From a virus, in IMG/VR virus record IMGVR_UViG_3300045107_000413, positions 58,513 through 122,512 of that record: a stretch of DNA of 64,000 nucleotides; one strand, given 5' to 3'. The notes below the pieces were generated by a model, which saw nothing but the letters and a program-made list of their open reading frames with translations, was not told the DNA's origin and did not search any database. Both the position numbers and the translations under genes were made by a program. This document shows, in pieces, positions 11,408 to 50,307 of the stretch (within the stretch, counting starts at the first letter, position 1; each line of letters opens with the position of its first letter).

Positions 11408-11644
11408 ATGGATGAGGAACAGGAAGCCCGACAACTGGCAATGCAGACCATGATGACGCAGAGAGAGGCGCGGGCATTCCTCTCTCTGGTGGCTGACTGG
11501 CAGCGCAATCACCCCGTCAGTGAGGCGGCAATGGCAGAGATCAAACAGACAGCGATAGAAAGCGCCTATTGCAGCAATGACAGCCCGCTTGCGGTACTTC
11601 AGGCGCTCTATCAGGCATACAAATGGAGTTCAAAGCGGGGATGA
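11408..11644 (+). CDS. Hypothetical protein
   Basis: ORF with an RBS inside the operon. Confidence 0.5.
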   Translation: MDEEQEARQLAMQTMMTQREARAFLSLVADWQRNHPVSEAAMAEIKQTAIESAYCSNDSPLAVLQALYQAYKWSSKRG

Positions 11645-11734
11645 GGCGGTTAGAACGGGAAGCAGGTCAGAGCCTTGAGGGGCTGAGAAGCATTGATTTT
11701 CAGGCGTGGCTTGATATGACAAAGGAGAGCAATA

Positions 11735-12130
11735 ATGCCTGATAAACTTGACACCGTGCAAGAACTCGCAAAAATTCGCCATGACCTACTCGTCTGGGCG
11801 GGTTATCATCGTGGCACAGGCATCAGCGAAGAAGCCATGCCGCGCTTTCATGAGATTATTGACCATCTCTCTCTGCTCATCCCTGAGACCGTCATCGTAC
11901 AAGGTGGCACGTGTTGGGCCTGTGGCATGTGGGGGCAAGATATGACATGGTGGCATGTGGGACTGTATGGAGATGACGGCAAGATGCATCTCAACAAGCG
12001 CATGAGTTATCTCATCCATAAGGGCAAGGAGTGTACGCGACTGGCAGAGGAGAAAGCGACGGCTGAGTACAGAGAGCAGGAGAAACAGCGTAGCAATGAA
12101 CAGGATATGGGATATGACCAACGCCCCTGA
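11735..12130 (+). CDS. Hypothetical protein
   Basis: AAGGAG RBS, CWAC. Confidence 0.55.
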   Translation: MPDKLDTVQELAKIRHDLLVWAGYHRGTGISEEAMPRFHEIIDHLSLLIPETVIVQGGTCWACGMWGQDMTWWHVGLYGDDGKMHLNKRMSYLIHKGKECTRLAEEKATAEYREQEKQRSNEQDMGYDQRP

Positions 12131-12380
12131 GTCTGAACAGAGAAAGGCCCTCTTCTTGCTCTCAGGAGATGAGCAATGGTTACAAATCAGCACGCCGTTA
12201 GAAGAGGCTATCCTGAAAGCGGCACAGGAAGGGTCTGATGACCTTGATGCGCTGCTACAGGAAGCATGTGAGCAGTTGGATGAGGACGTAGCAAATGGCC
12301 TGCTGGATAAGGTAGAGCAGATTATGCGGGAGAAAGTATATGATGCACGGAAATGGAGGATAGATGAACATGGACAATAA
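12096..12380 (+). CDS. Hypothetical acidic protein
   Basis: Overlapping ORF in the operon. Confidence 0.5.
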   Translation: MNRIWDMTNAPESEQRKALFLLSGDEQWLQISTPLEEAILKAAQEGSDDLDALLQEACEQLDEDVANGLLDKVEQIMREKVYDARKWRIDEHGQ

Positions 12381-14135: not shown

Positions 14136-14769
14136 ACTCGTCTTTTCTGTCTGTTCGTTCTGTTTGGCTCACTCTTCTTGTATGCCCTCTCAGCTTTGTT
14201 GGCTCGCTCTGTCTATATACCCGTTCAACACCGATGGCTCATTCACCCATGTTGCCTGCTCACACTCTTTTATTCACTCCGATTATTTGCCTGCTCAGCC
14301 TCAATGGTTCGCTCTTCTCGTATGCTCTTCATTCCGTGTGACTCGCTTACGTCTTTGCCCTGTTCTCATCTCTGGCTCGTTCACATCCCATTGCCGTCTC
14401 TTGCTCGTTGACTCATTCTGCTCCCATGCCCCTTCATTGCACATGACTCGCTTCTGGCTTGTGCCTGTTCACAACCTCTGGCTCACTCCCTTTTTCCTGC
14501 CTGTTCCTCTCTTGTGGTTCACTCTACTTTTGTGTCTGCTCACCTCAAATGGCTCACTCGCAGTCTATGCCTGCTCTGTTGATGTGGTTCACTCTGCTGA
14601 TATGTCCGCTCTTCGTTTGTGGCTCACTCAACCACCATGTCCTCTCAGTGTTGTTGGCTCATTCACCTGTTCTGCCTGCTCATTTCCTATGACTCACTCA
14701 CACTCCCTGCCTGCTCGATTCTTATGATTCGCTCTGACTCTCTGGTATCTCAACGCTTCTGATTCATTC
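14130..14769 (-). repeat. TIGR-like dual-repeat guide array (18 units, about 35-nt period)
   Basis: There are 19 copies of a 10-nt repeat (+ strand TGGCTCACTC; - strand GAGTGAGCCA), starting at 14130, 14165, 14200, 14235, 14270, 14305, 14339, 14373, 14409, 14444, 14479, 14515, 14550, 14585, 14620, 14655, 14690, 14725 and 14760. They alternate with a 9-nt repeat (TGCCTGCTC; - strand GAGCAGGCA). The unique spacers between them are mostly 8 nt. Confidence 0.88.
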
Positions 14770-15780
14770 AGATTGCTGCTTGCGCTGTGCCAGCCCCCGC
14801 TTGAAACGGGCAATTTTCACGGCAAGGGAGGCGTGATCGGGCATCTCCGGTGCGCTGACTTCTTCCTCATTCACTGCGTCTAGCACAGAGAGGTCAACCA
14901 GTTCTTCATCCTGTGCCACCTTCAAGTCAGCAGGCAGCGGCCAGTAGGGCGGCTTGATGAGGGCGCTATGCCCTAAATGGGAAAGCACATACGGCTCCGG
15001 CGGGGTCTCTTTGTACTCTGCCTCATACCAAACGTAGTGGAGATGCGAAAGAAAAAGTTTGACGGCAAACCGTCTGGCGCGGGCGTGAATGTGGGCGGGC
15101 GGGAGTTTGCCGGACTCATAGCAGGCGCGCGCCTTTGTATCGGTGCCGTAGCGTTTCTTTTGCAGGGCAAGGGCGGCTTGATCAGCAAACAACCCTAACT
15201 CATTAGCTTCTATCTCTTGCGCCTTGCGTCTGGCGTAGACATGCCCGTAGATGTCACGGGGTCGGTTTTGTACTTTGCAGAAACTCTCCCCGGCAAGGAA
15301 ACAAACGACCTTGAGTTTGGCATTCCAGGGCCGCTTCTGTCCCTTCTCCCACGTCACCGACGGGTTAAAGCCTGCATAGGAGATAATGTGTCCGGCGTAG
15401 GGGGCCTGCGTGATGTCGATATGGGCCAGCAGCCCTGATGCCAGTACGGGGCCGATGCCGGGGAGAGCGCGCAGCCACTCACCTACAGGGGATTGGGCGC
15501 GGCTGTAGGCATCCAGGGCCTTCTGGATGTTTTTTTCCAACCCCTCGGCATTGCCATACATCCACCTGATGAGGTCATGGGGTTCGCCTGACTCAGCGAG
15601 GGCGCGCATCTGGTTGCCGAAACGAATCCGGTAGCCTTGCACGGTATAGTAACTATCGACAAGGTACCGTGCCTCAGCTTGCGTCATCGTCTCCGCCGCC
15701 TTTTTCAAGTCCTTGCTCAGTCGCACAAACGGCTCTAAAGTGGCTTCCGCTAGTTCAAGCGCGGGGTCAGTCGTGGTCAT
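14764..15780 (-). CDS. Tas-like (TasA-type) IS110/Nop-domain RNA-binding protein
   Basis: ATG 15780 with an AAGGAG RBS. Motifs include YRIRFGNQ, LRALPGIGPVLASGLLAHID, SYAGF, WNAKLK and AHIHARARRFAVKLFLSHL. No N-terminal DEDD RuvC is visible. The stop codon overlaps the first array repeat. Confidence 0.85.
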   Translation of the reverse strand: MTTTDPALELAEATLEPFVRLSKDLKKAAETMTQAEARYLVDSYYTVQGYRIRFGNQMRALAESGEPHDLIRWMYGNAEGLEKNIQKALDAYSRAQSPVGEWLRALPGIGPVLASGLLAHIDITQAPYAGHIISYAGFNPSVTWEKGQKRPWNAKLKVVCFLAGESFCKVQNRPRDIYGHVYARRKAQEIEANELGLFADQAALALQKKRYGTDTKARACYESGKLPPAHIHARARRFAVKLFLSHLHYVWYEAEYKETPPEPYVLSHLGHSALIKPPYWPLPADLKVAQDEELVDLSVLDAVNEEEVSAPEMPDHASLAVKIARFKRGLAQRKQQSE

Positions 15781-15874
15781 AGGTTCCTTCTCCTTCTTGC
15801 AAGAATGATACGTCTTGTTGAGAGGAGTATAGCAGGAAGAGGAGCATCGTGCAAGGGGTGATGAGAGAAAAGTC

Positions 15875-16636
15875 CTATGCAGGCGTTGGTTGTGCGGAGA
15901 GTGAGCAGTAGAAGCGAATCTCCTCAGCAGAGAGCGCGTCTTCCAGCGCCACCTGCTCCCACTCTGGCGGGGCAATGCCGTCTATCTCATCGGTGATATT
16001 GCCCCCGTGTCTTACGCAGATATAGGCCGATGGGTCACGCACGGCTATCAGCGTCACGTCCCGCTCTAGCAACCCTTGCAAGTAGCGCGCATCTTCCCCC
16101 CTGTTCACCTCCGCAAAACGCAGGCCATCTACCCAGAAATCACGCCAGAACATGAGCGTTCCCGCGCGTACCCCATGCCTGAAGAGGGCATCATGCACGC
16201 GCGCGGAGGGCTGCCAGAGCGTCATATTACGGGTTCTGAGCAACCTGTCCATGTGCAGGGCGCTCACTTCCCCTTCCTGACTGAGCAGGGGCGCAACTTG
16301 CACAGAGAGGCGGTGCGGTCTATAGACATCATCATCGTCCCAGAGGGCAATGATATCCCCGTGTGCTAGCCCGCAGGCCATGTTACGTTTTGCGCCGAGG
16401 GTAAGGCCGGAAAGATCGCCGGAGAGCAGGCAATAGAAGATGTTGGGTTCGACGGTCATGCTCATCATGGTAAGCGGGCCGAAGCCTGCATGTTCGTCAA
16501 TGATGATGAGTTCTTTCGCGGGATAGTCCTGCTTTTTGAAAAGTTCAATAGCATGCGCAACAAAACGATGTCTGTTTTTCGTTGGCATAATGCAGCTAAT
16601 ACGAGGATATTCCACCACATCCACCTCTTCCACCAC
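15875..16636 (-). CDS. Glycosyltransferase family 2
   Basis: ISCIMPTKNR, QDYPAKELIIID, LGAKRN, WDDDD and GED. Confidence 0.88.
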   Translation of the reverse strand: MVEEVDVVEYPRISCIMPTKNRHRFVAHAIELFKKQDYPAKELIIIDEHAGFGPLTMMSMTVEPNIFYCLLSGDLSGLTLGAKRNMACGLAHGDIIALWDDDDVYRPHRLSVQVAPLLSQEGEVSALHMDRLLRTRNMTLWQPSARVHDALFRHGVRAGTLMFWRDFWVDGLRFAEVNRGEDARYLQGLLERDVTLIAVRDPSAYICVRHGGNITDEIDGIAPPEWEQVALEDALSAEEIRFYCSLSAQPTPA

Positions 16637-17447: not shown

Positions 17448-17478
17448 GGGATGTGTTGACAAACTGTCAACACATCCC
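17448..17478. terminator. Bidirectional hairpin
   Basis: GGGATGTGTTGACA-aac-TGTCAACACATCCC between convergent genes. Confidence 0.7.
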
Positions 17479-17504: not shown

Positions 17505-18149
17505 CTATCGCTTGCGCACACTCACCTGCATATCTCCCCACGTCAACTCAACATCCTGCTTCACCCCCTCTAGCAAGGAGTCTCCCACCACACGGCAAGC
17601 GAGCGCCGCCAGCACCTGCGCAAATGGCCTCGTCAACGGATACTCACACGGCCCCTCTATGCCGTCTTGCGGTATCAGGTAATCTGGCTCCCACAACCCA
17701 GAGCCATACAGCCCGTCAGCACTGAAACCCACATGCAGACAGGGGATATCATAGCACAACGCGCTTGCAGAAACCGCCTTGCGTCCTGCACGGTTATCCA
17801 GCGCGTCAATAATGAGAGCAGCACTCACTAAATGCCCGCCTGCGCTGTTCTCATCCAGCAGCACAGCAACGGGCGTGATTTTTGCAGCAACGGCGCGATA
17901 GAGCGCATTTGCCAGCGCCTTGACCTTCCATGCGCCGATATCCGCGCGGACATAGGGCTGGCAGGACAGGTTGCGCTCCTCTACCCGCCCGTTGTCAATC
18001 AAGGTCAGGCGGGCATAGCCCATGCGGGCAAGGTTTTCTGCAATCGGGCCACCGAGGGAGCCAACGCCGCAAATGGTGATGGGCATGTCACGCACCTGCG
18101 CGAGACTCCGGTATTGTTCTTCATGGTAGAAGGGGCTTTGCATGTTCAT
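17505..18149 (-). CDS. ThiF/E1-like adenylyltransferase
   Basis: GVGSLG, LARMG, LIDNGRVEERNLSCQ, KVKAL and DALDN. Candidate catalytic Cys in GPCEYP. Confidence 0.9.
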   Translation of the reverse strand: MNMQSPFYHEEQYRSLAQVRDMPITICGVGSLGGPIAENLARMGYARLTLIDNGRVEERNLSCQPYVRADIGAWKVKALANALYRAVAAKITPVAVLLDENSAGGHLVSAALIIDALDNRAGRKAVSASALCYDIPCLHVGFSADGLYGSGLWEPDYLIPQDGIEGPCEYPLTRPFAQVLAALACRVVGDSLLEGVKQDVELTWGDMQVSVRKR

Positions 18150-18433
18150 GTGATATTCTCCTTGTACCAGTCTGGTCTAGGAAACCTACCGCTAAAGGTG
18201 ATTTGCTCCTCTGCTGTGCAGGTAATGTCCGTAGCATCATCCCAATAGCGTTCTAGCGGTTCCCCTTCAGGCAAGTAGGCCACAATGATAGCAAAACGGT
18301 CATCCCCTGCGGTACCCGTATGCCACCAGGGATAGGCAGGGTTGAAGACGAGCGGGCGTACATCCTCAACTGATGCCGTCTGAAAGCGGTACCGCCGCCA
18401 CTGTGTACTAGTCATCGTCCTCATCTCCTTCAT
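18146..18433 (-). CDS. Hypothetical protein
   Basis: Coupled to its neighbours. YPWWHTG and FSGRFPRPDW. Confidence 0.55.
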   Translation of the reverse strand: MKEMRTMTSTQWRRYRFQTASVEDVRPLVFNPAYPWWHTGTAGDDRFAIIVAYLPEGEPLERYWDDATDITCTAEEQITFSGRFPRPDWYKENIT

Positions 18434-19328
18434 ACTGTTGCCAGCCAGGGCGGTGTTCCATCACGCTCACTAAACTGGTTAAGTCGAATTTCCTATCCTC
18501 ACCAGAGAGGCATATCCCTGATGAGATCACGGTCATATCCCGTGCGACGGTAGAGCGGTAACGGTGCGTCTCACTGCCATCGCTCCACTCAACCACCAGA
18601 TAGCCCGCCTGTCCCTGTGTGGCTTCCATCTCCCGGAAACTGATGAGTCGCCCGCCCGCCTTTGCGAGCGCATGCCGGAGCATCTCCTCTACCGCCCGCC
18701 CGCGCTGCCTCGCTTGCACTCGTGCCACATCTACCTGATGGAGTTGGTCCAGTACCAGCACGCGCCGCTCAGAACTGGACAGGCCCGTAAGGGAGACGCC
18801 CGCCTGTGCCTCCCGCAGCCGCTCGCCGTGTTCCGGGTCAGCGCGCATATCCGGGCCATCGTACCAGCACGTCGCGCCATCAACGCGCACAATGACGCGC
18901 TCGTATCGCTCTGCCCCGTCTGATGGGTCACAGAGGTAGACGGGGAAGGGGTCATCGGGCATCTGGAAGCGCGTCATTGCATCAGAGGCATTGTAGGGGA
19001 GGGCGTACCAGGCACCGGCGCGCTTGCGGCGCTCATCAGGCCAGAGCAAGAGGGCGCGAAGCGCAGGGAACTGCTCTAAGTATTCGGCCCGTTGCCAGGG
19101 GAGTGCCTCTGCTACCAGCATTACGCTCCGGCTATCACGCGGGCGGAAGCACCCCCAACCCACAAAGGGGCGTTCAGGGATGAACTCATAGACCATGCCG
19201 CCGTCTATGCGCGTCCTTACCTTGCCATGAGGAAGCAGGGGCGCGATGATGGAACGGGCAAGCAGGGAACGCTCGGACTCGGCCATCTGGGTGATGAGAC
19301 GTAGGGCATCATGATAACGTTTGGGCAT
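18408..19328 (-). CDS. Hypothetical protein of the Ro/ThiF cluster
   Basis: 306 aa with a C-terminal ISSGICLSGEDRKFDLTSLVSV carrying a lone Cys. Confidence 0.7.
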   Translation of the reverse strand: MPKRYHDALRLITQMAESERSLLARSIIAPLLPHGKVRTRIDGGMVYEFIPERPFVGWGCFRPRDSRSVMLVAEALPWQRAEYLEQFPALRALLLWPDERRKRAGAWYALPYNASDAMTRFQMPDDPFPVYLCDPSDGAERYERVIVRVDGATCWYDGPDMRADPEHGERLREAQAGVSLTGLSSSERRVLVLDQLHQVDVARVQARQRGRAVEEMLRHALAKAGGRLISFREMEATQGQAGYLVVEWSDGSETHRYRSTVARDMTVISSGICLSGEDRKFDLTSLVSVMEHRPGWQQYEGDEDDD

Positions 19329-19629
19329 CTTTTTTCTTTGTTCGCTGCTCTATTTCTTCCGCAAGGGCAGAAGAGACAGGGAGTTGATAGAACTTGAGGG
19401 CAAGAAGCGCCTTATCAACGGCTCCATAATCAAAACCATGCTCACTGACAAAGAGGGTTGTTATAGCATCAAGGGCTTGATGGAGTTGCATGACATCATA
19501 CTCCAAACAACGGGCATAAGTACGCAGGGAACTTACCTTCTGTTCCGTTTGGCTCATACTCTCAGCATACTGACTGAAAAGCCGATCACTGTCAAATCCT
19601 CGTGTCGTCATCTGCTCCTCCCTGTTCAC
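19309..19629 (-). CDS. Hypothetical protein
   Basis: Overlapping ORF in the operon. Confidence 0.5.
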   Translation of the reverse strand: MNREEQMTTRGFDSDRLFSQYAESMSQTEQKVSSLRTYARCLEYDVMQLHQALDAITTLFVSEHGFDYGAVDKALLALKFYQLPVSSALAEEIEQRTKKKDAQTLS

Positions 19630-19645
19630 GCATCACGTCGCCTGC

Positions 19646-19969
19646 TCAAGACGCTCCTCCACTTTCCGGCAAGGGTGCTTCGAGTTGTTGTATCCTTTTC
19701 TGTATTTTCTCCATGTCAGGCCAGCACTCCATATCTGATATTTCATCAAGACGGCGTTGGATAATGACAGGAGAAGCAAAAGGCGAAGCAGAACTCAGGA
19801 CATGGAATGCGAAATCATAGGCGCGGCAGGCAATGAGGTGTTGCACGCCCTGAAAATACTCCTCATAACTGGCAATCCAGGTATTTTCTCGGTAATGATT
19901 CCATGCTTCATCGAGTTCCTGAATGAGCAACGTTGCAAAGCCTGCAAAGTGGCTGTCACGCTCACTCAT
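19646..19969 (-). CDS. Hypothetical protein
   Basis: ATGA-coupled to the TROVE-like gene. Confidence 0.5.
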   Translation of the reverse strand: MSERDSHFAGFATLLIQELDEAWNHYRENTWIASYEEYFQGVQHLIACRAYDFAFHVLSSASPFASPVIIQRRLDEISDMECWPDMEKIQKRIQQLEAPLPESGGAS

Positions 19970-21435
19970 GCCCTCACCTGCTCTTTCTGGTCAGGACGCA
20001 CTGGAAGGGGTGTCGCCATGATGGTATCGATGAGTTCTTGCCGTGAAGGAGCAGCGAGGAGTGCAAGCAGAGACGGGTACGAATAATAGTCGCTCTTCTC
20101 AACGGGAAAGGTACTAAACTCGATGCCTGCCTTGCGCAAGCCGTCCTCAAACTCCCTATTCGGTGTTCTCGTTGCCACAATACATACTGCTGGTCGGATA
20201 TGCAATGCCTCGCTATACTCCCGGTAGGCATCGACAAAGCGCGGGGCGGTGACTTCTTCCTCATCCGTCACAATCACAATCTGCTCTACCAGTACCCCGT
20301 CTTTGCGCATCTTGACCAGGGGCGCGCCAATGGCAGTAGAGCCGTTAGCCTTGATGTAGCGAAATGCCTGCTCCCAATCAGAAAGCAGTGGGCGGCGTCC
20401 CTCTGGCACTGTCACCGTGATGGGGAACGCCTCACTGTCAAAGGCGTAGACGAAGAGGCCGTGCGTAGCGACTGCTGAGACCAGGGCGGCAATCTGCTTT
20501 GCCACCTCAATGGCCGCGCTCATGGAACTGCTCTTATCGGCAAAGATGGCCGTCGGGCGCGTAATCTCTGTCTTCTCAGCGATACGAGCATCTGTCACTT
20601 CCAAGAGCTTTGCTTCCGTCTCTGCGTCCAGTGCGACCTTCTCCGCCGCTTTCTTTGTCTTGAGGGTCGAGACCCGCCTGTCCTTCTTTGCCCCCTCAAG
20701 CTTGCCGTCAATAAGCTTTTTCAGGTCGGGGTGATCGAGCGCGCCGCGCCGCTTCAGCATGCCCATGCTATTGATGACCTCCTGCGGGGTCATGGCCTCC
20801 ACCAGTGCTACCAGCAGCGCAGGGGTGACAGACTTCACGGCGGCAATGGCGGTAGGATAGGGGATGCTATGCGCAAGGATGAGGCGCGCCTGCTCGGTGC
20901 TGTCCTCCGTCTTTGCAAGCTTCTTGAGGGCTGCCTGTGGGCTTCCCTCCGGCGGTAGCCCATCAAAGAGGATGGCCTGGGCGCGGGGGCTTGGGTGAAT
21001 GTGCAGGGAGGCATAGAGGTGCTTCATCGCAGCACGGGCGCGCAACACCGCCCCGTCGAACTGCTTCTCGTTCTGCTCACGGGTTGAGAGATAATGAGCA
21101 ATGGCCGTGCGCAGGGAACGCGGGACTTTCTTGCACTCTTTCGTGGCATGATCTAACACGCGGGCGACCTCATAGGGGGCAAGCGATTGCAAGAGCATCC
21201 AGGCCGCGCCGCGAAACTCTGGATACTCAGAGGTGGCAAGGTGCGCCACAAAGAGGACTTTGTGGTCGCGCACTTCCCCACGCGCAAAGTACCAGGGGGC
21301 GAGGTGCGCATAAAAGAGCGGGTCACGGGCAAGGGCGTCGGTGTGCAGGGGTGCCAACTCTGCCAACTTGCGGTGCGGCGTCGTGAGAAAACTGTTGAGG
21401 ATGCCGAGACGCACATCCGTTTCAGTCTGTTCCAT
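19966..21435 (-). CDS. Divergent Ro60/TROVE-like protein with C-terminal vWA domain
   Basis: Helical N-terminal region (DPLFYAHL, MKHLYASLHIHP). The vWA domain has a MIDAS ADKSSSM plus NGSTAIG and IVIVTDEEE. About 490 aa and near Y-like RNAs. Confidence 0.75.
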   Translation of the reverse strand: MEQTETDVRLGILNSFLTTPHRKLAELAPLHTDALARDPLFYAHLAPWYFARGEVRDHKVLFVAHLATSEYPEFRGAAWMLLQSLAPYEVARVLDHATKECKKVPRSLRTAIAHYLSTREQNEKQFDGAVLRARAAMKHLYASLHIHPSPRAQAILFDGLPPEGSPQAALKKLAKTEDSTEQARLILAHSIPYPTAIAAVKSVTPALLVALVEAMTPQEVINSMGMLKRRGALDHPDLKKLIDGKLEGAKKDRRVSTLKTKKAAEKVALDAETEAKLLEVTDARIAEKTEITRPTAIFADKSSSMSAAIEVAKQIAALVSAVATHGLFVYAFDSEAFPITVTVPEGRRPLLSDWEQAFRYIKANGSTAIGAPLVKMRKDGVLVEQIVIVTDEEEVTAPRFVDAYREYSEALHIRPAVCIVATRTPNREFEDGLRKAGIEFSTFPVEKSDYYSYPSLLALLAAPSRQELIDTIMATPLPVRPDQKEQVRA

Positions 21436-21778
21436 CGGGTTTCTCCTTCTTCTTGTTTCGTATCACCTTCACAATGGTGACAATGGCCTCAATTACGTCT
21501 TTCGGCATGTCCAATTCTTCTAAACACAGATAGAGCCATGCCCATTGTTCTGCCTCGGTAGGGATGCCTTCGGGGTTATGGAGAAACAGGTTCGCATCTA
21601 TCCTGAGCCACTCTACCAGTTTCGTAAAACTCTCAATATCAGGGAGTTTGCCACTGGCAATACGGCTCATGGTTGCCACACTCACCCCCGCCTCTTTTGC
21701 CGCTTCATGGATGGAGAGGCCGTTTTTTGTGAGATGAGATTGCAGGGTCGCACTGAAGAGGGTACGGTCAAAACTCAT
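21422..21778 (-). CDS. XRE-family HTH regulator
   Basis: LSIHEAAKEAGVSVATMSRIASGKLPD. Confidence 0.85.
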   Translation of the reverse strand: MSFDRTLFSATLQSHLTKNGLSIHEAAKEAGVSVATMSRIASGKLPDIESFTKLVEWLRIDANLFLHNPEGIPTEAEQWAWLYLCLEELDMPKDVIEAIVTIVKVIRNKKKEKPDGTD

Positions 21779-21793
21779 CCCTGATCTCCTTCT

Positions 21794-22225
21794 CTACAAA
21801 AAGATGGCATTTCCTTCCTGATGATGCACGAAATTTTCTTCAAGCATCTGTTTCCACTGCTCTGCCGTCGCACCATAACTCCCAAACGTGGTAGCATGCT
21901 CAGCACACCACGCACATAACTCATCGAGACTGGCAAAGACAGGGGATTGTGGGGAGCCTTCCGTCGTGGTTTCCCATAATTGATAGCCTTCCCCTTCTGG
22001 CGGCTCTAAACAGGTGTAGTTGACATACTCATTGCCATACCCATAGTTCACGGTAGGGAACTTGAGGAGTCTACCAAAATGCAGTTCCAGCCCGTGCCGT
22101 TCCTCATAACTCATCTCAGGGAAGTATTGCTCAAGCAGGCTTTCAAAGGATATCATGTACCCCGGCCATATCTTATCAAGCGGCCAGTCAAAGTCTAATG
22201 GAACACGTTTTAAGACTCGACCCAT
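21794..22225 (-). CDS. Phage hypothetical protein
   Basis: MGRVLKRVPLDFDWP...GYQLWETTTEGSPQSPVF. Confidence 0.6.
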   Translation of the reverse strand: MGRVLKRVPLDFDWPLDKIWPGYMISFESLLEQYFPEMSYEERHGLELHFGRLLKFPTVNYGYGNEYVNYTCLEPPEGEGYQLWETTTEGSPQSPVFASLDELCAWCAEHATTFGSYGATAEQWKQMLEENFVHHQEGNAIFL

Positions 22226-22257
22226 GATCTTCTCTCCTTCTCTTCAGTACAAAATTA

Positions 22258-22851
22258 TCACCGTGACCGTATATGCATGACGCGCTTCTCCCAGAGTGCA
22301 GGCAACCGCTCAAGCACAGCCTGATTGGCCTGCCGCACCGCCTCTGTAAGATGGACGGCGCGTTTCTGGTAGTGGGGTGAGGCCAGCCAGTCCGGGTACT
22401 CCGTGCTTCCCCTGTCCTTATTGCATTTGCGACACGCTGTGAGCAAATTCTCAGGGATAGTTGGCCCGCCGCGTTCCCAGAGGAGAATGTGGTCAACGGA
22501 GAGCGGAACGCCGTCACGCCCACAGTAGCGGCAGGTGTAGTTATCTCGCTTGAAGACGGCCCACTGCATATGCATATCAATCTGGCGCTGGCTCTTGCGC
22601 AGGATAGCCTTGCTGAGCGTGCCAGAGGCGTCCGTGAGCAGGATTTCTGTTTCCAGCAGGTCAGTTTGCCGTAAGAAGACTTCCCACTCAGCAAGGGTCA
22701 TGGGAAGCAGGCGCATTTGCGCGATGCCCTCTTCTTTGTCAGGCAGCAGCGTGAGCAGGCAGTCATCAGCACTGGCCCACAGCGCGCCTGCAATCTGGTA
22801 GCGCGTGCCGATGTCGTAGAGGTTGATGTCTGTCAATGTAGTTGTGTCCAT
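22258..22851 (-). CDS. HNH endonuclease-domain protein
   Basis: VFKRDNYTCRYCG, VDHI, GG....NLLTACRKCNKDRG. Confidence 0.88.
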   Translation of the reverse strand: MDTTTLTDINLYDIGTRYQIAGALWASADDCLLTLLPDKEEGIAQMRLLPMTLAEWEVFLRQTDLLETEILLTDASGTLSKAILRKSQRQIDMHMQWAVFKRDNYTCRYCGRDGVPLSVDHILLWERGGPTIPENLLTACRKCNKDRGSTEYPDWLASPHYQKRAVHLTEAVRQANQAVLERLPALWEKRVMHIRSR

Positions 22852-22885
22852 GTGTCTCCTTCTCTCAAAAATGGGTACAACAAAT

Positions 22886-23047
22886 CCGGGGCGTACAAGT
22901 TGCGTGAGCAGTCAAACAACGGTGCGTCTACCAGTTTCGCCACATGTTCACAGGAACATGAGAGGACTCGAACCCCTACACCCTATCAGGTACCTGCTTT
23001 TAAGAGCAGGAATGTATGTATGCTCATGCCGTCGGGGTACGCCCCGG
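22886..23047 (-). ncRNA. Y-RNA-like permuted tRNA mimic 4 (Leu-like)
   Basis: The closing stem CCGGGGCGTAC/GTACGCCCCGG encloses, in 5'-3' order, an anticodon-like hairpin (CCTGC..GCAGG), a variable arm, a T arm (GGTTCGAGTCC), a loop-closed acceptor stem and a D arm (TGGCGAAACTGGTAGACGC). Confidence 0.8.
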
Positions 23048-23058
23048 CATAAAATAGC

Positions 23059-23204
23059 CTGGGACGCGCAAGTTGAGCGGGCCGATAACACGCCTTTACC
23101 ATTTGGCTATCCGGGCAAGGAAAGAAAGCCCGGACTAGGAATCGAACCTAGATACTGCGAGAAGCAGATTGTTTGTATGCCTGCCCTGTTATGGCGCGTC
23201 CCAG
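23059..23204 (-). ncRNA. Y-RNA-like permuted tRNA mimic 3
   Basis: Closing stem CTGGGACGCGC/GCGCGTCCCAG. T arm CTAGGTTCGATTCCTAG, then closed acceptor TCCGGGC..GCCCGGA, then D arm TAGCCAAATGGTAAAGGC. Confidence 0.82.
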
Positions 23205-23220
23205 AAAGATGAGACCGGTC

Positions 23221-23359
23221 TATTCCGTCTGAGTTGAGCGAGCCGTGTTTCCGGTTTCCCGGCAACGATGGGACTTGAACCCATTACACTAACCTTAAGA
23301 GGGTTATGCTCTACCAGATGAGCTACGTTTGTAGGCTTGCTCTGTTATGAGACGGAACA
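23221..23359 (-). ncRNA. Y-RNA-like RNA 2 with a canonical-order tRNA-Lys(CUU)-like core
   Basis: Closing stem TTCCGTCT/AGACGGAA. D arm TAGCTCATCTGGTAGAGC, anticodon arm TAACC-CTCTTAA-GGTTA and T arm ATGGGTTCAAGTCCCAT. The acceptor is only about 4 bp and there is no CCA end. Confidence 0.78.
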
Positions 23360-23398
23360 GGCAAAGAATAAGAGCAAAGAAAAAGAATAGTATGTGTA

Positions 23399-23543
23399 TG
23401 AGCCGCGCAAGTTGTGTGGACTGTGAACCGTAGGCGCTCTACCACTGAGCCAATCCCCCTCGTGGGGGATGATGGATTCGAACCACCGACTTCCTGCTCC
23501 AAAAGCAAGGGTTTGTACGTCTACACCGTTATGGCGCGGCTCA
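23399..23543 (-). ncRNA. Y-RNA-like permuted tRNA mimic 1
   Basis: Closing stem TGAGCCGCGC/GCGCGGCTCA. Anticodon-like CTTGC-TTTTGGA-GCAGG, T arm GGTGGTTCGAATCCATC, closed acceptor TCCCCC-ACGA-GGGGGA and D arm TGGCTCAGTGGTAGAGC. Confidence 0.82.
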
Positions 23544-23554
23544 ATATGTGTTAT

Positions 23555-23767
23555 TTACCCATACACCGCTTCAGGGCGCACGATGATAGCCGTCTGCTCG
23601 CGCACCACGACGTGCGCGGCTAGCTTGTCGGCAGGCATATCCAGGTATGCTGCCGCCGCCTGCTTCAGTCGGGCGTCGGAGGCGGCTACCGGAATATCCA
23701 GCAGGCCGTAATCGCTGATCTCATGACTGCGCCCGTCTACCCGCACGTGAACCATCTGTGTTGCCAT
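23555..23767 (-). CDS. Small ubiquitin-like (beta-grasp) protein
   Basis: 70 aa from ATG 23767 with an AAGGAG RBS. MVHVRVDGRS...IIVRPEAVYG* ends in an exposed C-terminal Gly. Co-oriented with the ThiF gene. Confidence 0.7.
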   Translation of the reverse strand: MATQMVHVRVDGRSHEISDYGLLDIPVAASDARLKQAAAAYLDMPADKLAAHVVVREQTAIIVRPEAVYG

Positions 23768-23997
23768 CGTCGCGCTCCTTCCACTATCTTCCCGTGTTGT
23801 GAACAATCTTCTATGGAGAATAATACTACGGTCTGTCAATGGGGACAAGGGATGGGACTTTTGGGCAAGAAGAAAGCCTGCTCATTGATACCGGTGCGAA
23901 CAGGCTCAGGAACACCGTTGAAAGGAAATTTCAATGGATACTGCGATCAGTGTTGTCCAAACCTCCCCAAAGAGGTTACTTGTAGTATAGCACAGCC

Positions 23998-24510
23998 TTA
24001 CCCCTCTGTCTGCCGTGCAGGCTTTGCGCGTTTGCGTGGCGTCGGCTGCTCAAGCTTCTCAAGGATGGTCAGGAGACGGGCGTCCATCTCCAAAATGCGC
24101 GCGTCCTGAGCATCTAAGTGGTGGACAATCTGCTCAATATCATGGTAAGAGCGCATCGTCGTATGATACTGCTCATCGGCCTGAAGTTCCTGATGGCGGG
24201 AGAGAACATTCTGGGAAACCATGATGACGGGCAAGAGCGTGAGTTGGATGAGCGTTTGGGAAGTCCACGCGACGAGGAGCGCCACCACCGGCGGGAGAAT
24301 GCCTAAAATACCGAGCAGGCCGACAAGGGCGAGCAGCACAAAGAGATAGGCGGTTGGCATCGTCCCAACGGTGGTTGTCAGCCAGAGGGCAAGGGTATCA
24401 TTGAAACTCTGCCGCTCCTCTGCATGCATCTCATTGACGTTGACCGCCCGGTGAGGGTGTTGAGTATGCACATAGAGCGTCTTTTGCTTTTCTCTGTCTT
24501 CATGTTCCAT
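23998..24510 (-). CDS. DUF1003-like membrane protein
   Basis: SFNDTLALWLTTTVGTM, LPVIMVSQN and two to three TM helices. Confidence 0.7.
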   Translation of the reverse strand: MEHEDREKQKTLYVHTQHPHRAVNVNEMHAEERQSFNDTLALWLTTTVGTMPTAYLFVLLALVGLLGILGILPPVVALLVAWTSQTLIQLTLLPVIMVSQNVLSRHQELQADEQYHTTMRSYHDIEQIVHHLDAQDARILEMDARLLTILEKLEQPTPRKRAKPARQTEG

Positions 24511-24927: not shown

Positions 24928-25536
24928 CTACCTCGCTTTCACCAGTTCCCAGAGTCGCTTGATATGCCGCGCATCATCTATTGCCCGGTGGAGTCCTGCT
25001 TCCTGTGGTGGCAGCATATCATCCGTGATCCCCTGCGCATCAAGGATAGCCTGAAGCTCATGAATATAGTGCGGCAAGCCAGCAGGAACGTCTAGCATGG
25101 TGCCAAACACCTGAGCAAAGGCTACATAGTCATAGGCCGTAATCCAGCCCCGTAACTCAATACCTTCAGGGGTACCGGAGGAAAAACCGAAGAAGCCGAG
25201 AAGATCACGTCTCATTTGCGCCCGTGTGCGCCAGGGACAGCGATGACGCAGGCCGTAAATCTGGTCTACGCATTGCCCCTTCCTGTGCTGTGCTTGCGCG
25301 CCGTAGAGCGTTCCCAGAGAATAAAGCGGGCCGGGAGGTTGCTGGATATAGGGGCAAAGGTCAAGATGCATGATGACATTATCCTTCACCCACTGGCTGG
25401 CTTTGTCGATGTTGAACTCGCTGGATTGCAGGTAGAGTTCGCGTCCATCCTCACACACAATGCCAATGCTTATCAGATCAACGGTTTTCCCGTCATCAAT
25501 GAACTCGCTGTCCACATAATAGATCGTTCGCTTCAT
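24928..25536 (-). CDS. DEDDh 3'-5' exoribonuclease (Rv2179c/RNase AS-like)
   Basis: YVDSEFID, LISIGIVCEDGRELY, AYDYV and HRAIDDAR. Confidence 0.85.
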   Translation of the reverse strand: MKRTIYYVDSEFIDDGKTVDLISIGIVCEDGRELYLQSSEFNIDKASQWVKDNVIMHLDLCPYIQQPPGPLYSLGTLYGAQAQHRKGQCVDQIYGLRHRCPWRTRAQMRRDLLGFFGFSSGTPEGIELRGWITAYDYVAFAQVFGTMLDVPAGLPHYIHELQAILDAQGITDDMLPPQEAGLHRAIDDARHIKRLWELVKAR

Positions 25537-26999: not shown

Positions 27000-27200
27000 A
27001 TGAAACGCTACACCACCAGAGAAGCGGCAGAGCGGCTCGATATCGCCCCCGTCACCGTGCGCCGCCATATCGAGCAGGGGCATCTCTCCGCTGAAAAGTG
27101 CGGGCGTGACTACTTCATCACCGATGAGGAGTTGGCGCGCTTTGCTGCCATTACTCGCAGGCGCGGGCCACGCCCGAAAGGGTTGCCTGCTACTCAGTGA
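27000..27200 (+). CDS. HTH_17/excisionase-like DNA-binding protein
   Basis: YTTREAAERLDIAPVTVRRHIEQGHLSAEKCGRDYFI. Confidence 0.85.
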   Translation: MKRYTTREAAERLDIAPVTVRRHIEQGHLSAEKCGRDYFITDEELARFAAITRRRGPRPKGLPATQ

Positions 27201-30200
27201 ACGGGTCATCAATGAACGGGACATCCACCACGCCCGTTGCCTGCTCATAGGCTTCCCAGTCATCCATACGCATATTCGTGCGCTGCTCTGCTGTAAGCGG
27301 CGGGCGTTGCCCCTTGCCGACACCTACGGGCCATCTGCGATAGCGGGCGGGCATCATGCCACTCATCGTTGGCACCTGTTTGGTGATGAGTTGGGTGAGG
27401 GCGGCTAACTCTTCCCTGCTGTACTGCTTTGTCTCACCGCCCGTCTGAAGCAATTCCTCAAAACTGGCGATATTATCAATTGCCATGCTGGAAACGGGCG
27501 TCACCGTGCGGCTAAAGGTGGTGGGACGGCCAAGCGGCATATCCTTGAGTTTGCCGACCGCCTCCAGCGTGGCGCGTACCTCGTTCTGCAAGCCTGCGAG
27601 CTTCGTGCGCGCCTCCCCCATTGCGCTGTCCACGGCTTTTGTGACGTTGGCGGTGATGATGTCCTGTGCGCTGACACCGGCAAAGGTCTGCTGGATTGCG
27701 GCCTTGATGGCATTGGAGAGTTCAGCAGAAGCGAGCATGGAGTAGTCGGGGCCTTCACCCATCTGTCGTGCCTCCGCCTGCGCTTCCTCGACCGTGGTGC
27801 CGTTGCCCTGGTGCGCCGTGCCATCGCCTGAGACACCCTTGCAGGCGTCAGGATGCATGGCGGCGACCATATCATGAATGCTCTGCAACCGTTGCCGGTT
27901 CGTGGCATTGATTTCACGCCCCTCTTTGCGCTTGACCCCGTTGGCATCCATGCTGTAGAGGCCGTAGGGAGCCGCCTGTGCCTGACCTGCGCTCTCCTCA
28001 TCGTCATCACTATCTGCGTCGAGGTCAGGCACGTGCATGAGGGTCATCAGGCCGTCCACGTAGCCGTCAATGCGCCCTGAGAGCATTTCCAGCGCGTCAC
28101 TACACTCATCTAACTGCGAAAGCGTGGAGATGACCGTCTGCGCATCGGCGTCATTCTGCACGAGGTTGCATTTGGTGGCAAGCATGGCAGGGGTGACTTC
28201 CAGCAGGCCGAGGGACTTGCCGATGTCATTGTAGAGGCGCAGGGCCGCGTGCTGAATATCGGTGAGTGCGGGCGCAGCTTTGCCGGTCAAGGCCATTTCT
28301 TGCCCTTCTACAGGGCTTCCAGGGGCATGTGTGAGAGCCTTGCTCGCTGTGCGGGATTCGCACTTGTCACAGCAGTCACAGTCAGGCTTGCCCGTGCAGG
28401 CATCGCAGCAGCCACAGCCGACAGCTTTGGTAGCGTCTGGCGGGTCTATTGTCTTCTCCTCATCGCTATGGTGATCGTGCTGGCTATCATTGGAATGCCG
28501 ATGGACATGAGAGTGCTGGTTATCTCCTCCCTGGCTTGAGTATGCATGATGAGAATGCTCATGCTCACCAGTAAATGCAGCGTGAGAGCCGTCTTCATTG
28601 ATCGTGACGCTGCCCGCCTTTGTCGTGTCTTCCTCCTCCACGATGTCCTGCCGGATGAGGGCCTCCCCATTCTCCGTATCCAACACACCCTCTGCTTTGC
28701 TGGCAAGCCAGGGAATCCACCCGCCGCCGGACTCCTTCACGTAGAGGATGCCGCCATGCTCCTCCGTCTCAAAACCGAGCGCCTGCATACAGGCCGTTTC
28801 CTCAGCATAGAGGGCATCCATACTCTTGTCTTCCTTTTCCCACGGAACCACCCATTTCGGGTCGGGGGAAAATTCGCTGTTGATGCGCCCGTACATGGTT
28901 TTGACTTTTGCTTTCATCGCAGCGTCATCCCCGCCAAATTTGCCGCCGCCCATGCCCCCACTGAGTACGCCCGCACAGGCCCGGCAACCAAGCGGGACAA
29001 TCTTGGGAGAGCCATCTGAGACGTAGCAGAAGGGCATCTTGAAGCCGCTCTGCTTATCGCTATTGTCGGGGTCATACCAGAGGAAGCACTGACGAGCCTT
29101 ACTTGCCACAATGTCCCCATCATCATTCTTTGCCCAGGCGAATATCTGCTGCTCCGCTTTACTGCCTGTCCACTCTGTCTTTATGTCCATGAGCGGCCAT
29201 GAGGTTTTGCCCGATGCCGCCTTTGTACTATCCAGATCATCATTATCAAGGGATTGCTGCTCTACATCCATTGCGGTAGTATCCTGTGGAGTTGCTGTTT
29301 TCTGCTCTACGACATGCTGCGCTAAGAGGGAAGAGACTTCATCACGGGAAAGGGATTTCTTGGTACCGGTACCAGCGTCGAGGTAAAAGCCCTCTTCTCC
29401 ATCGAGGGTATACATCACCCGCGCCGTCTGCGCGCCACGCGCCTTGATACGGGAGAGGTCGCTTTTCAGGCCATCACTGGTGATGTTGTCAACAATGGAG
29501 GCATAATCACGGGAGAAGAGGGACTTGAAGGCGGGGGCAAGTTGCTTTGCCGTCTCAGCATCACCATCTACCAGTGAGCGAGCAAAACGGCCTTTGATCG
29601 CGTTCTCAACCCAACAGCGTTGATTCGCAGGCAAAGAGACAATTGAGAACTCAACGGCCTGTACGCGCTTGATGATAATGGGTGAGTTCGGGTCATTGGG
29701 GTCAGCAAAGTCCCATTCCAGTACCAGACAACCAACGGATGTTCCTAAGCGCAGTTTCGATTTGATGATGAGGTTATAGGCCCGTTCCGCCGGAGGATGG
29801 TCAACCGCCATTTCGGTTGCCAGCCAGAGATCAGCAATATGGTTTTGCAACTGAATCATGGGTTGCCCGTAGAGTTTGCCCATGATATTGTCGAGGTTAT
29901 ACGAGTGATCAGAGAAGATCAAGAAATCAGGGTCAAGGTGCGTCATATCCTCTAATGCAGAGAGGGCCATGATGTCGCCTTGCAAGTCCATGATGGTAGA
30001 GGAGCCGCGCATCTGCACGATGGGGCGGCTCCTATCTGCATCTGGAATAGGGATAAGCCCGGCTGTCTTCATCGAGCCGGTATAAATGCTGAAGTCTGCG
30101 CCCACCAGTTTGCGGGACTGCGCAAACTCCCGCGAGAGTAAAGACGTATCTACCGCCACATTCACCACCACTTTCACTACCCACCACATCCCATGTGGCA

Positions 30201-30201
30201 T
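27190..30201 (-). CDS. Large prohead protease/scaffold protein
   Basis: N-terminal HK97-type protease motifs (DLQGDIM, FSDH, GTSVG, EFSIVSLPAN), then a long acidic, His-rich and Cys-rich extension. The exact start is uncertain. Confidence 0.8.
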   Translation of the reverse strand: MPHGMWWVVKVVVNVAVDTSLLSREFAQSRKLVGADFSIYTGSMKTAGLIPIPDADRSRPIVQMRGSSTIMDLQGDIMALSALEDMTHLDPDFLIFSDHSYNLDNIMGKLYGQPMIQLQNHIADLWLATEMAVDHPPAERAYNLIIKSKLRLGTSVGCLVLEWDFADPNDPNSPIIIKRVQAVEFSIVSLPANQRCWVENAIKGRFARSLVDGDAETAKQLAPAFKSLFSRDYASIVDNITSDGLKSDLSRIKARGAQTARVMYTLDGEEGFYLDAGTGTKKSLSRDEVSSLLAQHVVEQKTATPQDTTAMDVEQQSLDNDDLDSTKAASGKTSWPLMDIKTEWTGSKAEQQIFAWAKNDDGDIVASKARQCFLWYDPDNSDKQSGFKMPFCYVSDGSPKIVPLGCRACAGVLSGGMGGGKFGGDDAAMKAKVKTMYGRINSEFSPDPKWVVPWEKEDKSMDALYAEETACMQALGFETEEHGGILYVKESGGGWIPWLASKAEGVLDTENGEALIRQDIVEEEDTTKAGSVTINEDGSHAAFTGEHEHSHHAYSSQGGDNQHSHVHRHSNDSQHDHHSDEEKTIDPPDATKAVGCGCCDACTGKPDCDCCDKCESRTASKALTHAPGSPVEGQEMALTGKAAPALTDIQHAALRLYNDIGKSLGLLEVTPAMLATKCNLVQNDADAQTVISTLSQLDECSDALEMLSGRIDGYVDGLMTLMHVPDLDADSDDDEESAGQAQAAPYGLYSMDANGVKRKEGREINATNRQRLQSIHDMVAAMHPDACKGVSGDGTAHQGNGTTVEEAQAEARQMGEGPDYSMLASAELSNAIKAAIQQTFAGVSAQDIITANVTKAVDSAMGEARTKLAGLQNEVRATLEAVGKLKDMPLGRPTTFSRTVTPVSSMAIDNIASFEELLQTGGETKQYSREELAALTQLITKQVPTMSGMMPARYRRWPVGVGKGQRPPLTAEQRTNMRMDDWEAYEQATGVVDVPFIDDPFTE

Positions 30202-31702: not shown

Positions 31703-32263
31703 TCATTCATGCTTTGCCTCCAATGGTTCCAACACTTCCACATAAAACGGGCCGCGCACGCCCGCGCTATGCCGCTCTGCTCCAGCAAGGGCTAGCTCAA
31801 GCCGGATCAATGGCTTGAGGGTAGGGGTGGCATAGAGAACGCCGAGCGCCACATCTTCCCCACAGCCAACGGCATCATAGCCGTCAAGGGATTCTCCCAC
31901 CTGATAATCTGCATCAATGGTGAAGAGGTGGCCTGCAATGCCTACCAGGAAATGCCCCGCCGACTCCTGCTCATTGTTTTTCTGTGCGTAGCCGCCAGAT
32001 TTCAGGCATTCCCGCACCGCGTCAATGAAGGTGGTTGCCATGAAGCGTTCGAGGTCAACTGTACTGTCATATACTGGCGGCGTGAATGCAAAGCGGAGCA
32101 ATTGCAGCATTCTAAACGAGGTGGTCGCCCCGAAGAGATAGCCGCCATTGTGAAACACCTTCCTGTCTTTACGGATGGTGAGGCTATAGCCACCCACGCC
32201 CGCGCTATCACCGCCGATGTAGACACGCCCATCGTCATCGATTAGCCCAACAATACATGTCAT
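31703..32263 (-). CDS. HslV/proteasome-beta-like Ntn peptidase
   Basis: N-terminal M-T-CIVG (Thr nucleophile), IGGDS, KVF and AVGCG...ALG. Confidence 0.75.
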   Translation of the reverse strand: MTCIVGLIDDDGRVYIGGDSAGVGGYSLTIRKDRKVFHNGGYLFGATTSFRMLQLLRFAFTPPVYDSTVDLERFMATTFIDAVRECLKSGGYAQKNNEQESAGHFLVGIAGHLFTIDADYQVGESLDGYDAVGCGEDVALGVLYATPTLKPLIRLELALAGAERHSAGVRGPFYVEVLEPLEAKHE

Positions 32264-50076: not shown

Positions 50077-50307
50077 TCATGCTTCCTCCTCTACTACCAG
50101 TCGGTAGCGACATGCCAGATCGGGCAACTCCTCTATCAGCCCCTTGCGCTGCAACTCTTCCAGCGCGGCGTCATAGACCGTGCCAGGTATCCTTGTATGG
50201 AACTCAGTGCGGGAGACGCCGAGGGCATCTGCCATGTCCCAATCCGCCAGATACGCCGCCTTTGTGATGAGTAGGATACGCAAGATATCCCAGGCTAGTT
50301 TGCTCAT
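50077..50307 (-). CDS. Small winged-HTH protein
   Basis: ALEELQRKGLIE. Confidence 0.5.
   Translation of the reverse strand: MSKLAWDILRILLITKAAYLADWDMADALGVSRTEFHTRIPGTVYDAALEELQRKGLIEELPDLACRYRLVVEEEA

Follow-up and report, generated by a model that had tools for sequence, protein, structure and literature searches.

We describe here a gene set carried by a stretch of 64,000 nucleotides (the window), positions 58,513 to 122,512 of the IMG/VR virus record IMGVR_UViG_3300045107_000413. The set lies on the minus strand of the window and encodes a 70-aa protein ending in glycine, four Y-RNA-like units, a 489-aa Ro60-like protein, a 306-aa protein with an invariant cysteine and a 214-aa ThiF/E1-like enzyme. 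These parts belong to a conserved cassette, in which the Ro60-like protein, one to several Y RNAs, the Gly-ended protein, the Cys protein and ThiF travel together in one order and on one strand, across many bacterial phyla and phages. We lean towards the reading that it is a conserved mobile cassette, whose ubiquitin-like (Ubl) conjugation module is functionally coupled to the ribonucleoprotein (RNP) of Ro60 and Y RNA. The comparative evidence that both the cassette and the coupling would be real is strong, and the chemistry of a Ubl, an E1 and a carrier is likely, as judged from sequence.

Conservation and distribution of the cassette

A genome scan with the single Ro60-like protein found one locus, while an alignment-based scan with one genome per species found 243 Ro-like relatives. 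The best 80 of these 243 matches (79 distinct loci) and the one locus from the single-protein scan make up the set of 80 loci referred to throughout. With the window proteins as queries, relatives of ThiF were noticed at 57 of the 80 loci, those of the 306-aa protein at 60, those of the 70-aa protein at 51 and those of the HNH endonuclease encoded inside the window set at 5; no other ORF (open reading frame) of the window set had a relative at any locus. When homologues were added as queries the small protein was found at 59 loci and ThiF and the 306-aa protein at 57 and 60 as before, all of them on the strand of the Ro gene. Flanks of 5 kb or more on either side of the gene are available at 47 loci, of which 34 had all three partners and 6 had one or two. 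Most often the small-protein gene comes first, followed by the RNA units, the Ro-like gene, the 306-aa gene and finally ThiF. The bacterial copies, mostly on large chromosomal contigs, come from Ktedonobacteria and other Chloroflexota, Pyrinomonadaceae, Obscuribacterales, Gemmataceae, Armatimonadota, one cyanobacterium and a few others. In IMG/VR, 22 contigs, many of them longer than 200 kb, carry the Ro-like or the 306-aa gene; their 31 locus rows contain the small protein in 27, the 306-aa protein in 29, a JAB protein in 28 and ThiF in 27, and the order is kept. The co-occurrence anticipated in the original prediction, which had been made from the letters of this DNA, is thus widespread, at bacterial loci and on 22 viral contigs. 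Its picture of a phage-specific system has to be given up, as the cassette is chromosomal in Ktedonobacteria, Pyrinomonadaceae, Obscuribacterales, Gemmataceae and others. Since genes, order and strand recur in dozens of genomes, the arrangement is beyond chance.

The copy in the window is nevertheless a phage copy. The record behind it has 122,512 bases, is rated complete and also encodes portal, large and small terminase, head protein, endolysin, integrases, RecT and polynucleotide kinase; a complete record with portal, terminase and head genes makes the description "phage-encoded" correct for this copy. All the parts listed in the original prediction were located at the positions given there and on the minus strand. 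Their span, 23848-17448, runs as a single unit from a promoter-like site upstream of the small-protein gene (TTGTCC-17-TATTAT, 23820..23848, agreeing with the consensus at 9 of 12 positions; minus strand, as are all features of the set) to a terminator-like hairpin with a 14-bp stem just past the ThiF stop (17448..17478), both of them results of consensus scans, which alone are no proof of function. When the cassette region was searched with blastn against a phage collection no match was obtained.

It may be argued that the Ro-Y RNP and a Ubl-type operon are mere neighbours in a common mobile or defence island and act independently, with no joint mechanism. In Obscuribacterales the small protein, the 306-aa protein and ThiF form a contiguous triad some 7 kb away from the Ro-like gene, and at the remaining 7 of the 47 well-flanked loci the Ro-like gene stands without the triad; both observations weigh against the coupling. 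Also, many loci are flanked by tRNA arrays and by other genes that look mobile, which speaks for such an island. However, the strand is shared in every case, the order is fixed across phyla and the 22 viral contigs, the Y RNAs lie between the tag and Ro-like genes in most bacterial loci, and in the window one promoter-like and one terminator-like site enclose the whole set. Furthermore, when 39 loci are compared, the four proteins agree in their pairwise distances with r of 0.85-0.97, and 0 of 500 permutations gave values as high, although this correlation is partly due to shared ancestry. Independent action of two neighbours therefore appears unlikely to us, and we retain the coupled cassette as the preferred reading.

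In 13 bacterial loci a JAB gene (Pfam Prok-JAB, 1e-6) is present between the 306-aa gene and ThiF. The copies of the window and of Ktedonobacteria are without JAB, and Prok-JAB was not found when the whole phage record was searched, which is a point against the preferred reading. In a tree of 96 Ro-like proteins, built by a quick method with a midpoint root, the window and 32 rows of Ktedonobacteria and Chloroflexia form one set with a Shimodaira-Hasegawa-like approximate likelihood ratio (SH-aLRT) support of 100, in which the window branches first, and the other viral Ro-like copies fall in at least three separate places. The closest relatives of the window protein are metagenomic (90%, 72% and 69% identity), and those from named Ktedonobacteria have 60-64% identity. 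As the window copy groups with Ktedonobacteria, and both are without JAB, the data fit an exchange between a phage and a host of the Ktedonobacteria type.

The Ro60-like protein and the Y-RNA-like units

The 489-aa protein (19966..21435) had been described in the original prediction as a TROVE-vWA protein, and structure prediction confirmed this, whereas sequence models were nearly silent. No family of Pfam or NCBIfam, including the TROVE model, was matched at E up to 0.01, the single sequence found no relative in the PDB, and only PHROG gave a match, between its C-terminal vWA part and phrog_850, "RNA-binding protein" (9e-5). A profile of 26 sequences of the family, on the other hand, matched the Ro60 of Thermus phage phiLo (9l5y/9kop) with E 3.4e-5 over residues 29-400. 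The AlphaFold2 (AF2) model, with a predicted local distance difference test score (pLDDT) of 85.1, has 18 helices followed by an alpha/beta domain; the TROVE helical ring covers about residues 1-290 and the vWA domain comes after it. The best Foldseek matches of this model were all Ro60: 9nfa (8.5e-12), the human 9nen with a template modelling (TM) score of 0.56, the Deinococcus 2nvo and the phiLo 9l5y. Down to rank 12 the rows were all Ro60, with E from 8.5e-12 to 1.2e-8, TM 0.43-0.56 and about 460-540 columns (ranks 11 and 13 are extra chains of entries already listed and were skipped), and lone vWA domains came after them. Residues D300, S302, S304, T367 and D391 do not vary among the 26 sequences, and we read them as an intact metal-ion-dependent adhesion site (MIDAS) motif of the vWA domain. 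Judged by its predicted structure, the 489-aa protein is a relative of Ro60. It may be noted that in 20 of the 80 loci a second, separate vWA protein (Pfam VWA_4, 1.1e-12; for example at 11523-12326 of locus L003) lies between the Ro-like and the 306-aa genes, and that in the window this position holds two unrelated small ORFs.

An ORF-free stretch of about 660 nt separates the 70-aa gene from the HNH gene. It holds four units, the first of them directly downstream of the 70-aa gene; the gap, put at about 10 nt in the original prediction, measures 12 nt. All four are closed by a stem between their 5' and 3' ends and share a conserved internal loop with a CAUAAC-type side facing CAACUU, a UACAAAC-type motif and a further helix, helix 2. 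Unit 1 (23399..23543) is laid out as closing stem, anticodon-like arm, T arm, closed acceptor-like hairpin and D arm. Units 3 (23058..23205) and 4 (22886..23047, with a long variable arm) are permuted in the same way, in the order T arm, closed hairpin and D arm of YrlA. In unit 2 (23220..23360) the common closing stem surrounds a tRNA body in normal order, with D arm, an anticodon arm with CUU, T arm and an incomplete acceptor stem. The four units were assigned from the stem scan and the alignment, together with pair counts for units 1, 3 and 4 and the Rfam matches. The Rfam YrlA model (RF02553) gave its best score with unit 1, 29.1 bits, in an alignment covering T arm, hairpin and D arm; units 3 and 4 scored weakly, 16.6 and 16.5 bits, that of unit 4 over the full length, and no unit in the window attained the gathering threshold of 69 bits. 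The one Rfam tRNA match was with unit 2, at 49.7 bits over model positions 4-67 of 71, with the acceptor ends missing, and ARAGORN called no tRNA in the window. The four tRNA-mimic RNAs of the original prediction are therefore upheld as four units with tRNA-like bodies, but not as RNAs that ARAGORN calls as tRNA or that reach the YrlA threshold.

To look for such units elsewhere we scanned the 80 related loci and the window with a Y-stem pattern that required pairing of helix 1 and left helix 2 and the T arm free. An initial pattern built on the 5' motif had found almost nothing. The strict stem scan found 50 units on the gene strand and 0 on the opposite strand and 0 in shuffles, while a looser scan was noisier, with 143 units on the gene strand as against 9 on the opposite one and 20 in shuffles. 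In an alignment of 45 units, 91.4% of the cells of helix 2 were paired and 6 of its 7 pairs had changed on both sides; for the T arm the figures were 96.4% and 4 of 5 covarying pairs, as against 35-52% pairing in slid controls. The pairing of helix 1 is circular, since the scan itself imposed it, and this has to be counted against the case for the units. An anticodon-type arm was noticed in 31 of the 45 units with 25 different triplets, which is a hint only, the score having favoured U33 and R37. The units mostly separate the tag gene from the Ro-like gene in bacterial loci, and in viral loci they mostly lie upstream of the gene for the small protein. Within a few kb of the cassette we also observed dense runs of T-loop motifs, which were identified by motif only and probably represent arrays of as many as about 17 tRNA genes, at the bacterial loci L023, L030-L035, L039 and L040 and the viral loci L089, L091, L108, L109 and L111.

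Ro60-Y RNA RNPs with adjacent Y RNAs are known in phages, as in Thermus phage phiLo with its Ro60 and Yrl1/Yrl2 (PMC12135203), and the words ThiF and ubiquitin do not occur in that paper. Like the RNPs of Deinococcus Rsr, Salmonella rsr-yrlBA-rtcBA and phiLo, the cassette combines a protein of TROVE ring and vWA fold with Y RNAs beside its gene, a closing stem formed by the RNA ends and the YrlA order of T arm, hairpin and D arm. It differs from them in that the protein is too distant for the Pfam TROVE model and the best YrlA score is 29.1 against 69 bits, in the anticodon-like arm of many units and the normally ordered tRNA body of some, and in the partners. RtcB, the partner in rsr-yrlBA-rtcBA, was not found in the phage record, and the place beside the Ro gene is taken by a Gly-ended protein, a Cys protein, ThiF and sometimes JAB.

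The candidate tag, its Cys carrier and ThiF

The three partners of the Ro-like protein differ greatly in how well sequence searches recognise them. The 70-aa, 306-aa and 489-aa proteins have no family in scans of Pfam, NCBIfam and PADLOC, and with PADLOC the cassette proteins other than ThiF were unmatched beyond weak HTH and HNH matches. The 70-aa protein (23555..23767) was delimited by its ORF, whose ATG is preceded by the Shine-Dalgarno sequence GGAAGGAG, and ends in RPEAVYG. Its homologues have 65-89 aa, and 51 of 51 stop directly after the glycine, with a tail of the form RP[EQ]Ax[YF]G (RPEAx[YF]G in 50 and RPQAIYG in 1); this tail is probably flexible. The family is large, with 4297 clusters at 90% identity, the best 120 of which are all "hypothetical" and without Pfam, and an ESM Atlas search returned unnamed clusters only. 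Several results weigh against calling this protein a Ubl: none of 50 members has a Pfam family and the 70-aa protein has no NCBIfam family, the ThiS model run on 5 genomes found other genes and never the small protein, hhalign gave a probability of 3% against ThiS/MoaD, and the best PDB profile matches, weak ones, were to ribosomal protein uL23 (E 0.002). We therefore treat "Ubl" as a reading, and the 70-aa protein as a candidate tag.

The 306-aa protein (18408..19328) had been credited in the original prediction with a lone Cys. The window copy has four, and only Cys273, in GICLSG, is invariant, in 57 of 57 sequences of one alignment and 49 of 49 of another. Cys273 stands in the context GICLSG.D..FDL.S, with the consensus DLTVxSSGICLSG around it, and the invariant residues over the 49 sequences are C273, D278, D282 and S285, with no invariant His. 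An invariant Cys without an invariant His argues against a Cys-His peptidase and favours the role of a carrier. The AF2 model (pLDDT 89.2) runs from an N-terminal helix through two barrels, a long helix and four strands to the Cys loop and two helices. The barrels resemble the OB (oligonucleotide/oligosaccharide-binding) folds of IF1, uS17 and the N-domains of proteasomal ATPases, with Z of 5-6 only, and a BFVD search gave weak S1/IF1-type rows only. In our reading of the model the last domain, a small alpha/beta one that carries Cys273, has the element order of a small UBC-type fold. The structural matches of residues 203-306 were mixed, at Z about 5-6, among them an RWD-type chain (5mu3_D, Z 5.0, 71 residues aligned) and Sec3 (Z 5.8); this domain was searched within the whole model, and the VIA lists of structural matches are dominated by the OB domain. 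Foldseek with the whole model found no match at or below 1e-3, the PDB profile search gave nothing real, and ESM Atlas, for residues 180-306, gave no named match with a poor Atlas model (pLDDT 0.46). Longer fused forms of the protein were searched for and none was found, which is weak evidence. The family comprises 1250 clusters at 50% identity. As an E2-like carrier, which the original prediction had made of it, the protein has in its favour the invariant Cys273, the element order of the model and a gene position between the tag gene and JAB/ThiF, but three results tell against the assignment: no UBC/E2 structure was matched, the UQ_con and Prok-E2 models matched none of 49 family members at E up to 5, and the HPN motif is absent from the family consensus. 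We accordingly regard it as a candidate Cys carrier that may fill an E2-like role.

ThiF (17505..18149, 214 aa) is, by contrast, recognised with ease by Pfam ThiF, at 8.7e-22 and 77.9 bits against a cut-off of 28.1 bits. Over 55 sequences the GxGxxG motif (G28, G30, G33), D52, K75, D118 and C168 are invariant; C168 lies beyond the PDB alignments, which end near residue 144-152, and is a candidate for the catalytic Cys of a thioester. Its profile found 71 PDB sequences at E up to 1e-5, scoring TcdA, Uba1, SAE2 and MoeB alike, between 1e-15 and 1e-18, with MccB also among the matches at 4.7e-14. As TcdA, the E1s, MoeB and MccB score alike, the ThiF clade leaves the chemistry undecided. ThiF further matches the E1 part of the PADLOC E1-E2 models of CBASS (cyclic oligonucleotide-based antiphage signalling system; 3.4e-15) and Cap2 chains, and its top NCBIfam matches are ThiS adenylyltransferases, all under cut-off.

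Two of these matches lead to explanations without a tag. The chains of TcdA, which acts on tRNA (on t6A), are nominally the top PDB matches (9.8e-18), tied with the E1s, and the small-protein profile is weakly like uL23; both facts speak against a tagging module and would suit a ThiF that acts on RNA or a small molecule, beside a 70-aa protein that is an RNA-binding protein or chaperone. Against this, the stop falls straight after the invariant Gly in 51 of 51 homologues, and the operon holds JAB and an invariant-Cys protein, neither of which chemistry on RNA alone would need. We regard a TcdA-like enzyme as quite improbable. The match to MccB, together with the conserved C-terminal tail, suggests instead maturation of a peptide, in which ThiF would nucleotidylate or cyclise the C-terminus of the small protein to give a modified product. 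The substrate here is a conserved protein of 65-89 aa and no short leader-core peptide, however, no export or immunity gene is among the named conserved neighbour clusters, and the constant link to the Ro-like gene and Y RNAs would go unexplained; this possibility is very slight.

A third alternative is a sulfur relay, in which the small protein would be a thiocarboxylate carrier activated by ThiF, Cys273 would form a persulfide and the sulfur would enter the tRNA-like RNAs or tRNAs. TtuB/TtuC of Thermus and Urm1/Uba4 are such Ubl sulfur carriers for tRNA thiolation, which are also conjugated to proteins, and a JAB-type peptidase can belong to systems of this kind. As in these, the cassette ties an E1-like enzyme and a small Gly-ended protein to tRNA-type RNA. 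A relay is further suggested by the ThiS adenylyltransferases at the head of the NCBIfam matches of ThiF (below cut-off), by the tRNA-like T arms kept in the RNAs and by the OB-type barrels of the 306-aa protein, which could bind RNA. Unlike in those systems, no thiolation enzyme is among the named cassette neighbours, as neither PP-loop ATPase nor rhodanese nor cysteine desulfurase is found among the named conserved neighbour clusters, and the small protein is unlike ThiS/MoaD in sequence. Its tail ends in one Gly that follows an aromatic residue instead of in Gly-Gly, and the regular JAB of other lineages suits deconjugation better, although it would also be compatible with a dual role. We think a sulfur relay improbable.

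The original prediction had linked a Ubl, an E1 and a Cys carrier to the Ro-Y RNP, and it is partly supported; an E2 fold of the carrier is tentative. The idea of a coupled module is supported because the C-terminal Gly and Cys273 are invariant and JAB lies at the position expected in such an operon. We argue that if the coupled reading is correct, ThiF would adenylate the C-terminal Gly of the small protein, and the tag would be handed on, in thioester form, to Cys273 in the 306-aa protein, perhaps via Cys168 of ThiF, from where it would be passed to a target; JAB, where encoded, would take it off again. The closing stem of the Y RNA would bind the Ro ring and display the tRNA-like body. The tagging enzyme would be united with the RNP through the OB-type barrels on the side of the 306-aa protein and the vWA/MIDAS domain on that of the Ro protein, and tagging would be directed by, or act on, the cargo of the RNP. 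It is conceivable, though we would not expect it, that the tRNA-mimic Y RNAs are themselves the bait or the substrate of the tagging enzyme. As bait, the Ro-Y RNP may show tRNA look-alikes with varied anticodon-type loops, so that proteins which attack tRNA or otherwise act on it are captured there and tagged by the Cys carrier with its OB barrels; as substrate, the RNA itself may be joined to the tag in a protein-RNA conjugate. If true in either form, this would be an RNA-guided or RNA-acting ubiquitin-like system in bacteria and phages. The nature of the conjugation target, the countering of anticodon nucleases proposed in the original prediction, and any role in RNA quality control, defence or counter-defence are conjecture.

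Prokaryotic Ubl operons, such as Bil, type II CBASS with Cap2/Cap3 and Bub, consist of a Ubl with an E1-like protein, an E2-like protein and JAB. The fuller cassettes match them in content and order (Gly-ended protein, Cys protein, JAB, ThiF). They differ in that the tag and the Cys protein fit no known Ubl or E2 family, in the OB-type barrels of the Cys protein and in having the Ro60-like protein and Y RNAs in the operon. The PRTRC cassette likewise combines a ThiF-family protein, a small Ubl-like and an E2-like protein on mobile DNA; it is not known to contain a Ro-like protein or Y RNAs. Among its models (NCBIfam TIGR03734-03742), PRTRC_ThiF hits ThiF at 2.1e-7 with 30.5 bits against a cut-off of 144.75, and none matches the 70-aa or 306-aa protein. 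The Ro-Y RNP and the bacterial Ubl operons are thus each known, and their combination appears not to have been described in the literature searched. That search, the likeliest earlier source being outside its coverage, found no paper joining Ro60/TROVE or YrlA with ThiF, E1, JAB or Ubl. A preprint on Asgard viruses (10.1101/2021.07.29.454249) lists Ro60 and E1-like genes separately, and a jumbo-phage review (PMC7824862) mentions TROVE with a tRNA-like partner only in the context of RNA repair. A further match, "Trove" in PMC7159879, was the phrase "treasure trove" and not the protein domain.

The function of the Ro60-Y RNP is poorly understood beyond a few bacteria. Bacterial ubiquitin-like systems have only recently been connected with phage conflict. 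The cassette is a concrete, testable link between these two fields that occurs in cultivable Ktedonobacteria and in phages, and its Cys-protein and small-protein families are large and unnamed. If RNA-directed tagging holds true, it would be a new mode of aiming a ubiquitin-like modifier.

Local inserts and neighbouring phage genes

The remaining ORFs of the window set are local inserts. The HNH endonuclease (22258..22851; Pfam HNH, 8e-11) and the XRE-type HTH protein (21422..21778; Pfam HTH_3, 1.7e-5) were members of the system in the original prediction; we do not count them as such, relatives being present in 5 of the 80 bacterial loci for HNH and in 0 for HTH. HNH relatives are likewise lacking in the viral loci. 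The five loci with HNH are those of Pyrinomonadaceae (L030-L033 and L035), where the relatives have 37-44% identity over 63-81 aa and lie about 300-500 nt upstream of the small-protein gene. Their presence near five cassettes there suggests that the HNH link may recur beyond this phage. Between the HNH and HTH genes is a 143-aa ORF (21794..22225) that falls in no family of four libraries, two further small ORFs of 107 and 106 aa (19309..19969) separate the Ro-like gene from that of the 306-aa protein, and a 95-aa ORF (18146..18433) occupies the JAB position of other lineages; all of these are familyless and have relatives in 0 of the 80 loci. The data fit an insertion of HNH, HTH and the small ORFs on the spot, alongside the exchange with a host of the Ktedonobacteria type.

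Just upstream of the cassette and on the same strand lie a gene for a DUF1003 protein (23998-24510) and one for an RNase AS/Rv2179c-like 3'-5' exoribonuclease (24928-25536; NCBIfam 1e-39, below cut-off, and phrog_2259, 3.9e-36), both with relatives in 0 of the 80 loci. Ro RNPs are known to act together with 3'-5' exonucleases. Elsewhere on the minus strand of the window a polynucleotide kinase is encoded (50304-50858; phrog_415, 1.3e-22). RtcB and RNA_ligase (PF09414) were searched for in the whole phage record and not found, and the kinase would thus be an RNA-end-healing enzyme without an obvious sealing partner in the record. An HslV-family peptidase (31703-32263, minus strand; phrog_1040, 3.6e-17) and a 1003-aa ORF (27190-30201, minus strand), with a match to a family of major head proteins over residues 138-302, were also noticed. 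On the other side of the cassette, the ORF at 14764-15975 (minus strand) matches over residues 102-316 the NCBIfam model NF052498, "TIGR-Tas system RNA-guided endonuclease", at 8.8e-56 and 189 bits against a cut-off of 100, as well as the PHROG annotation "transposase" at 6.4e-46, and is possibly a phage-borne nuclease of the TIGR-Tas type.

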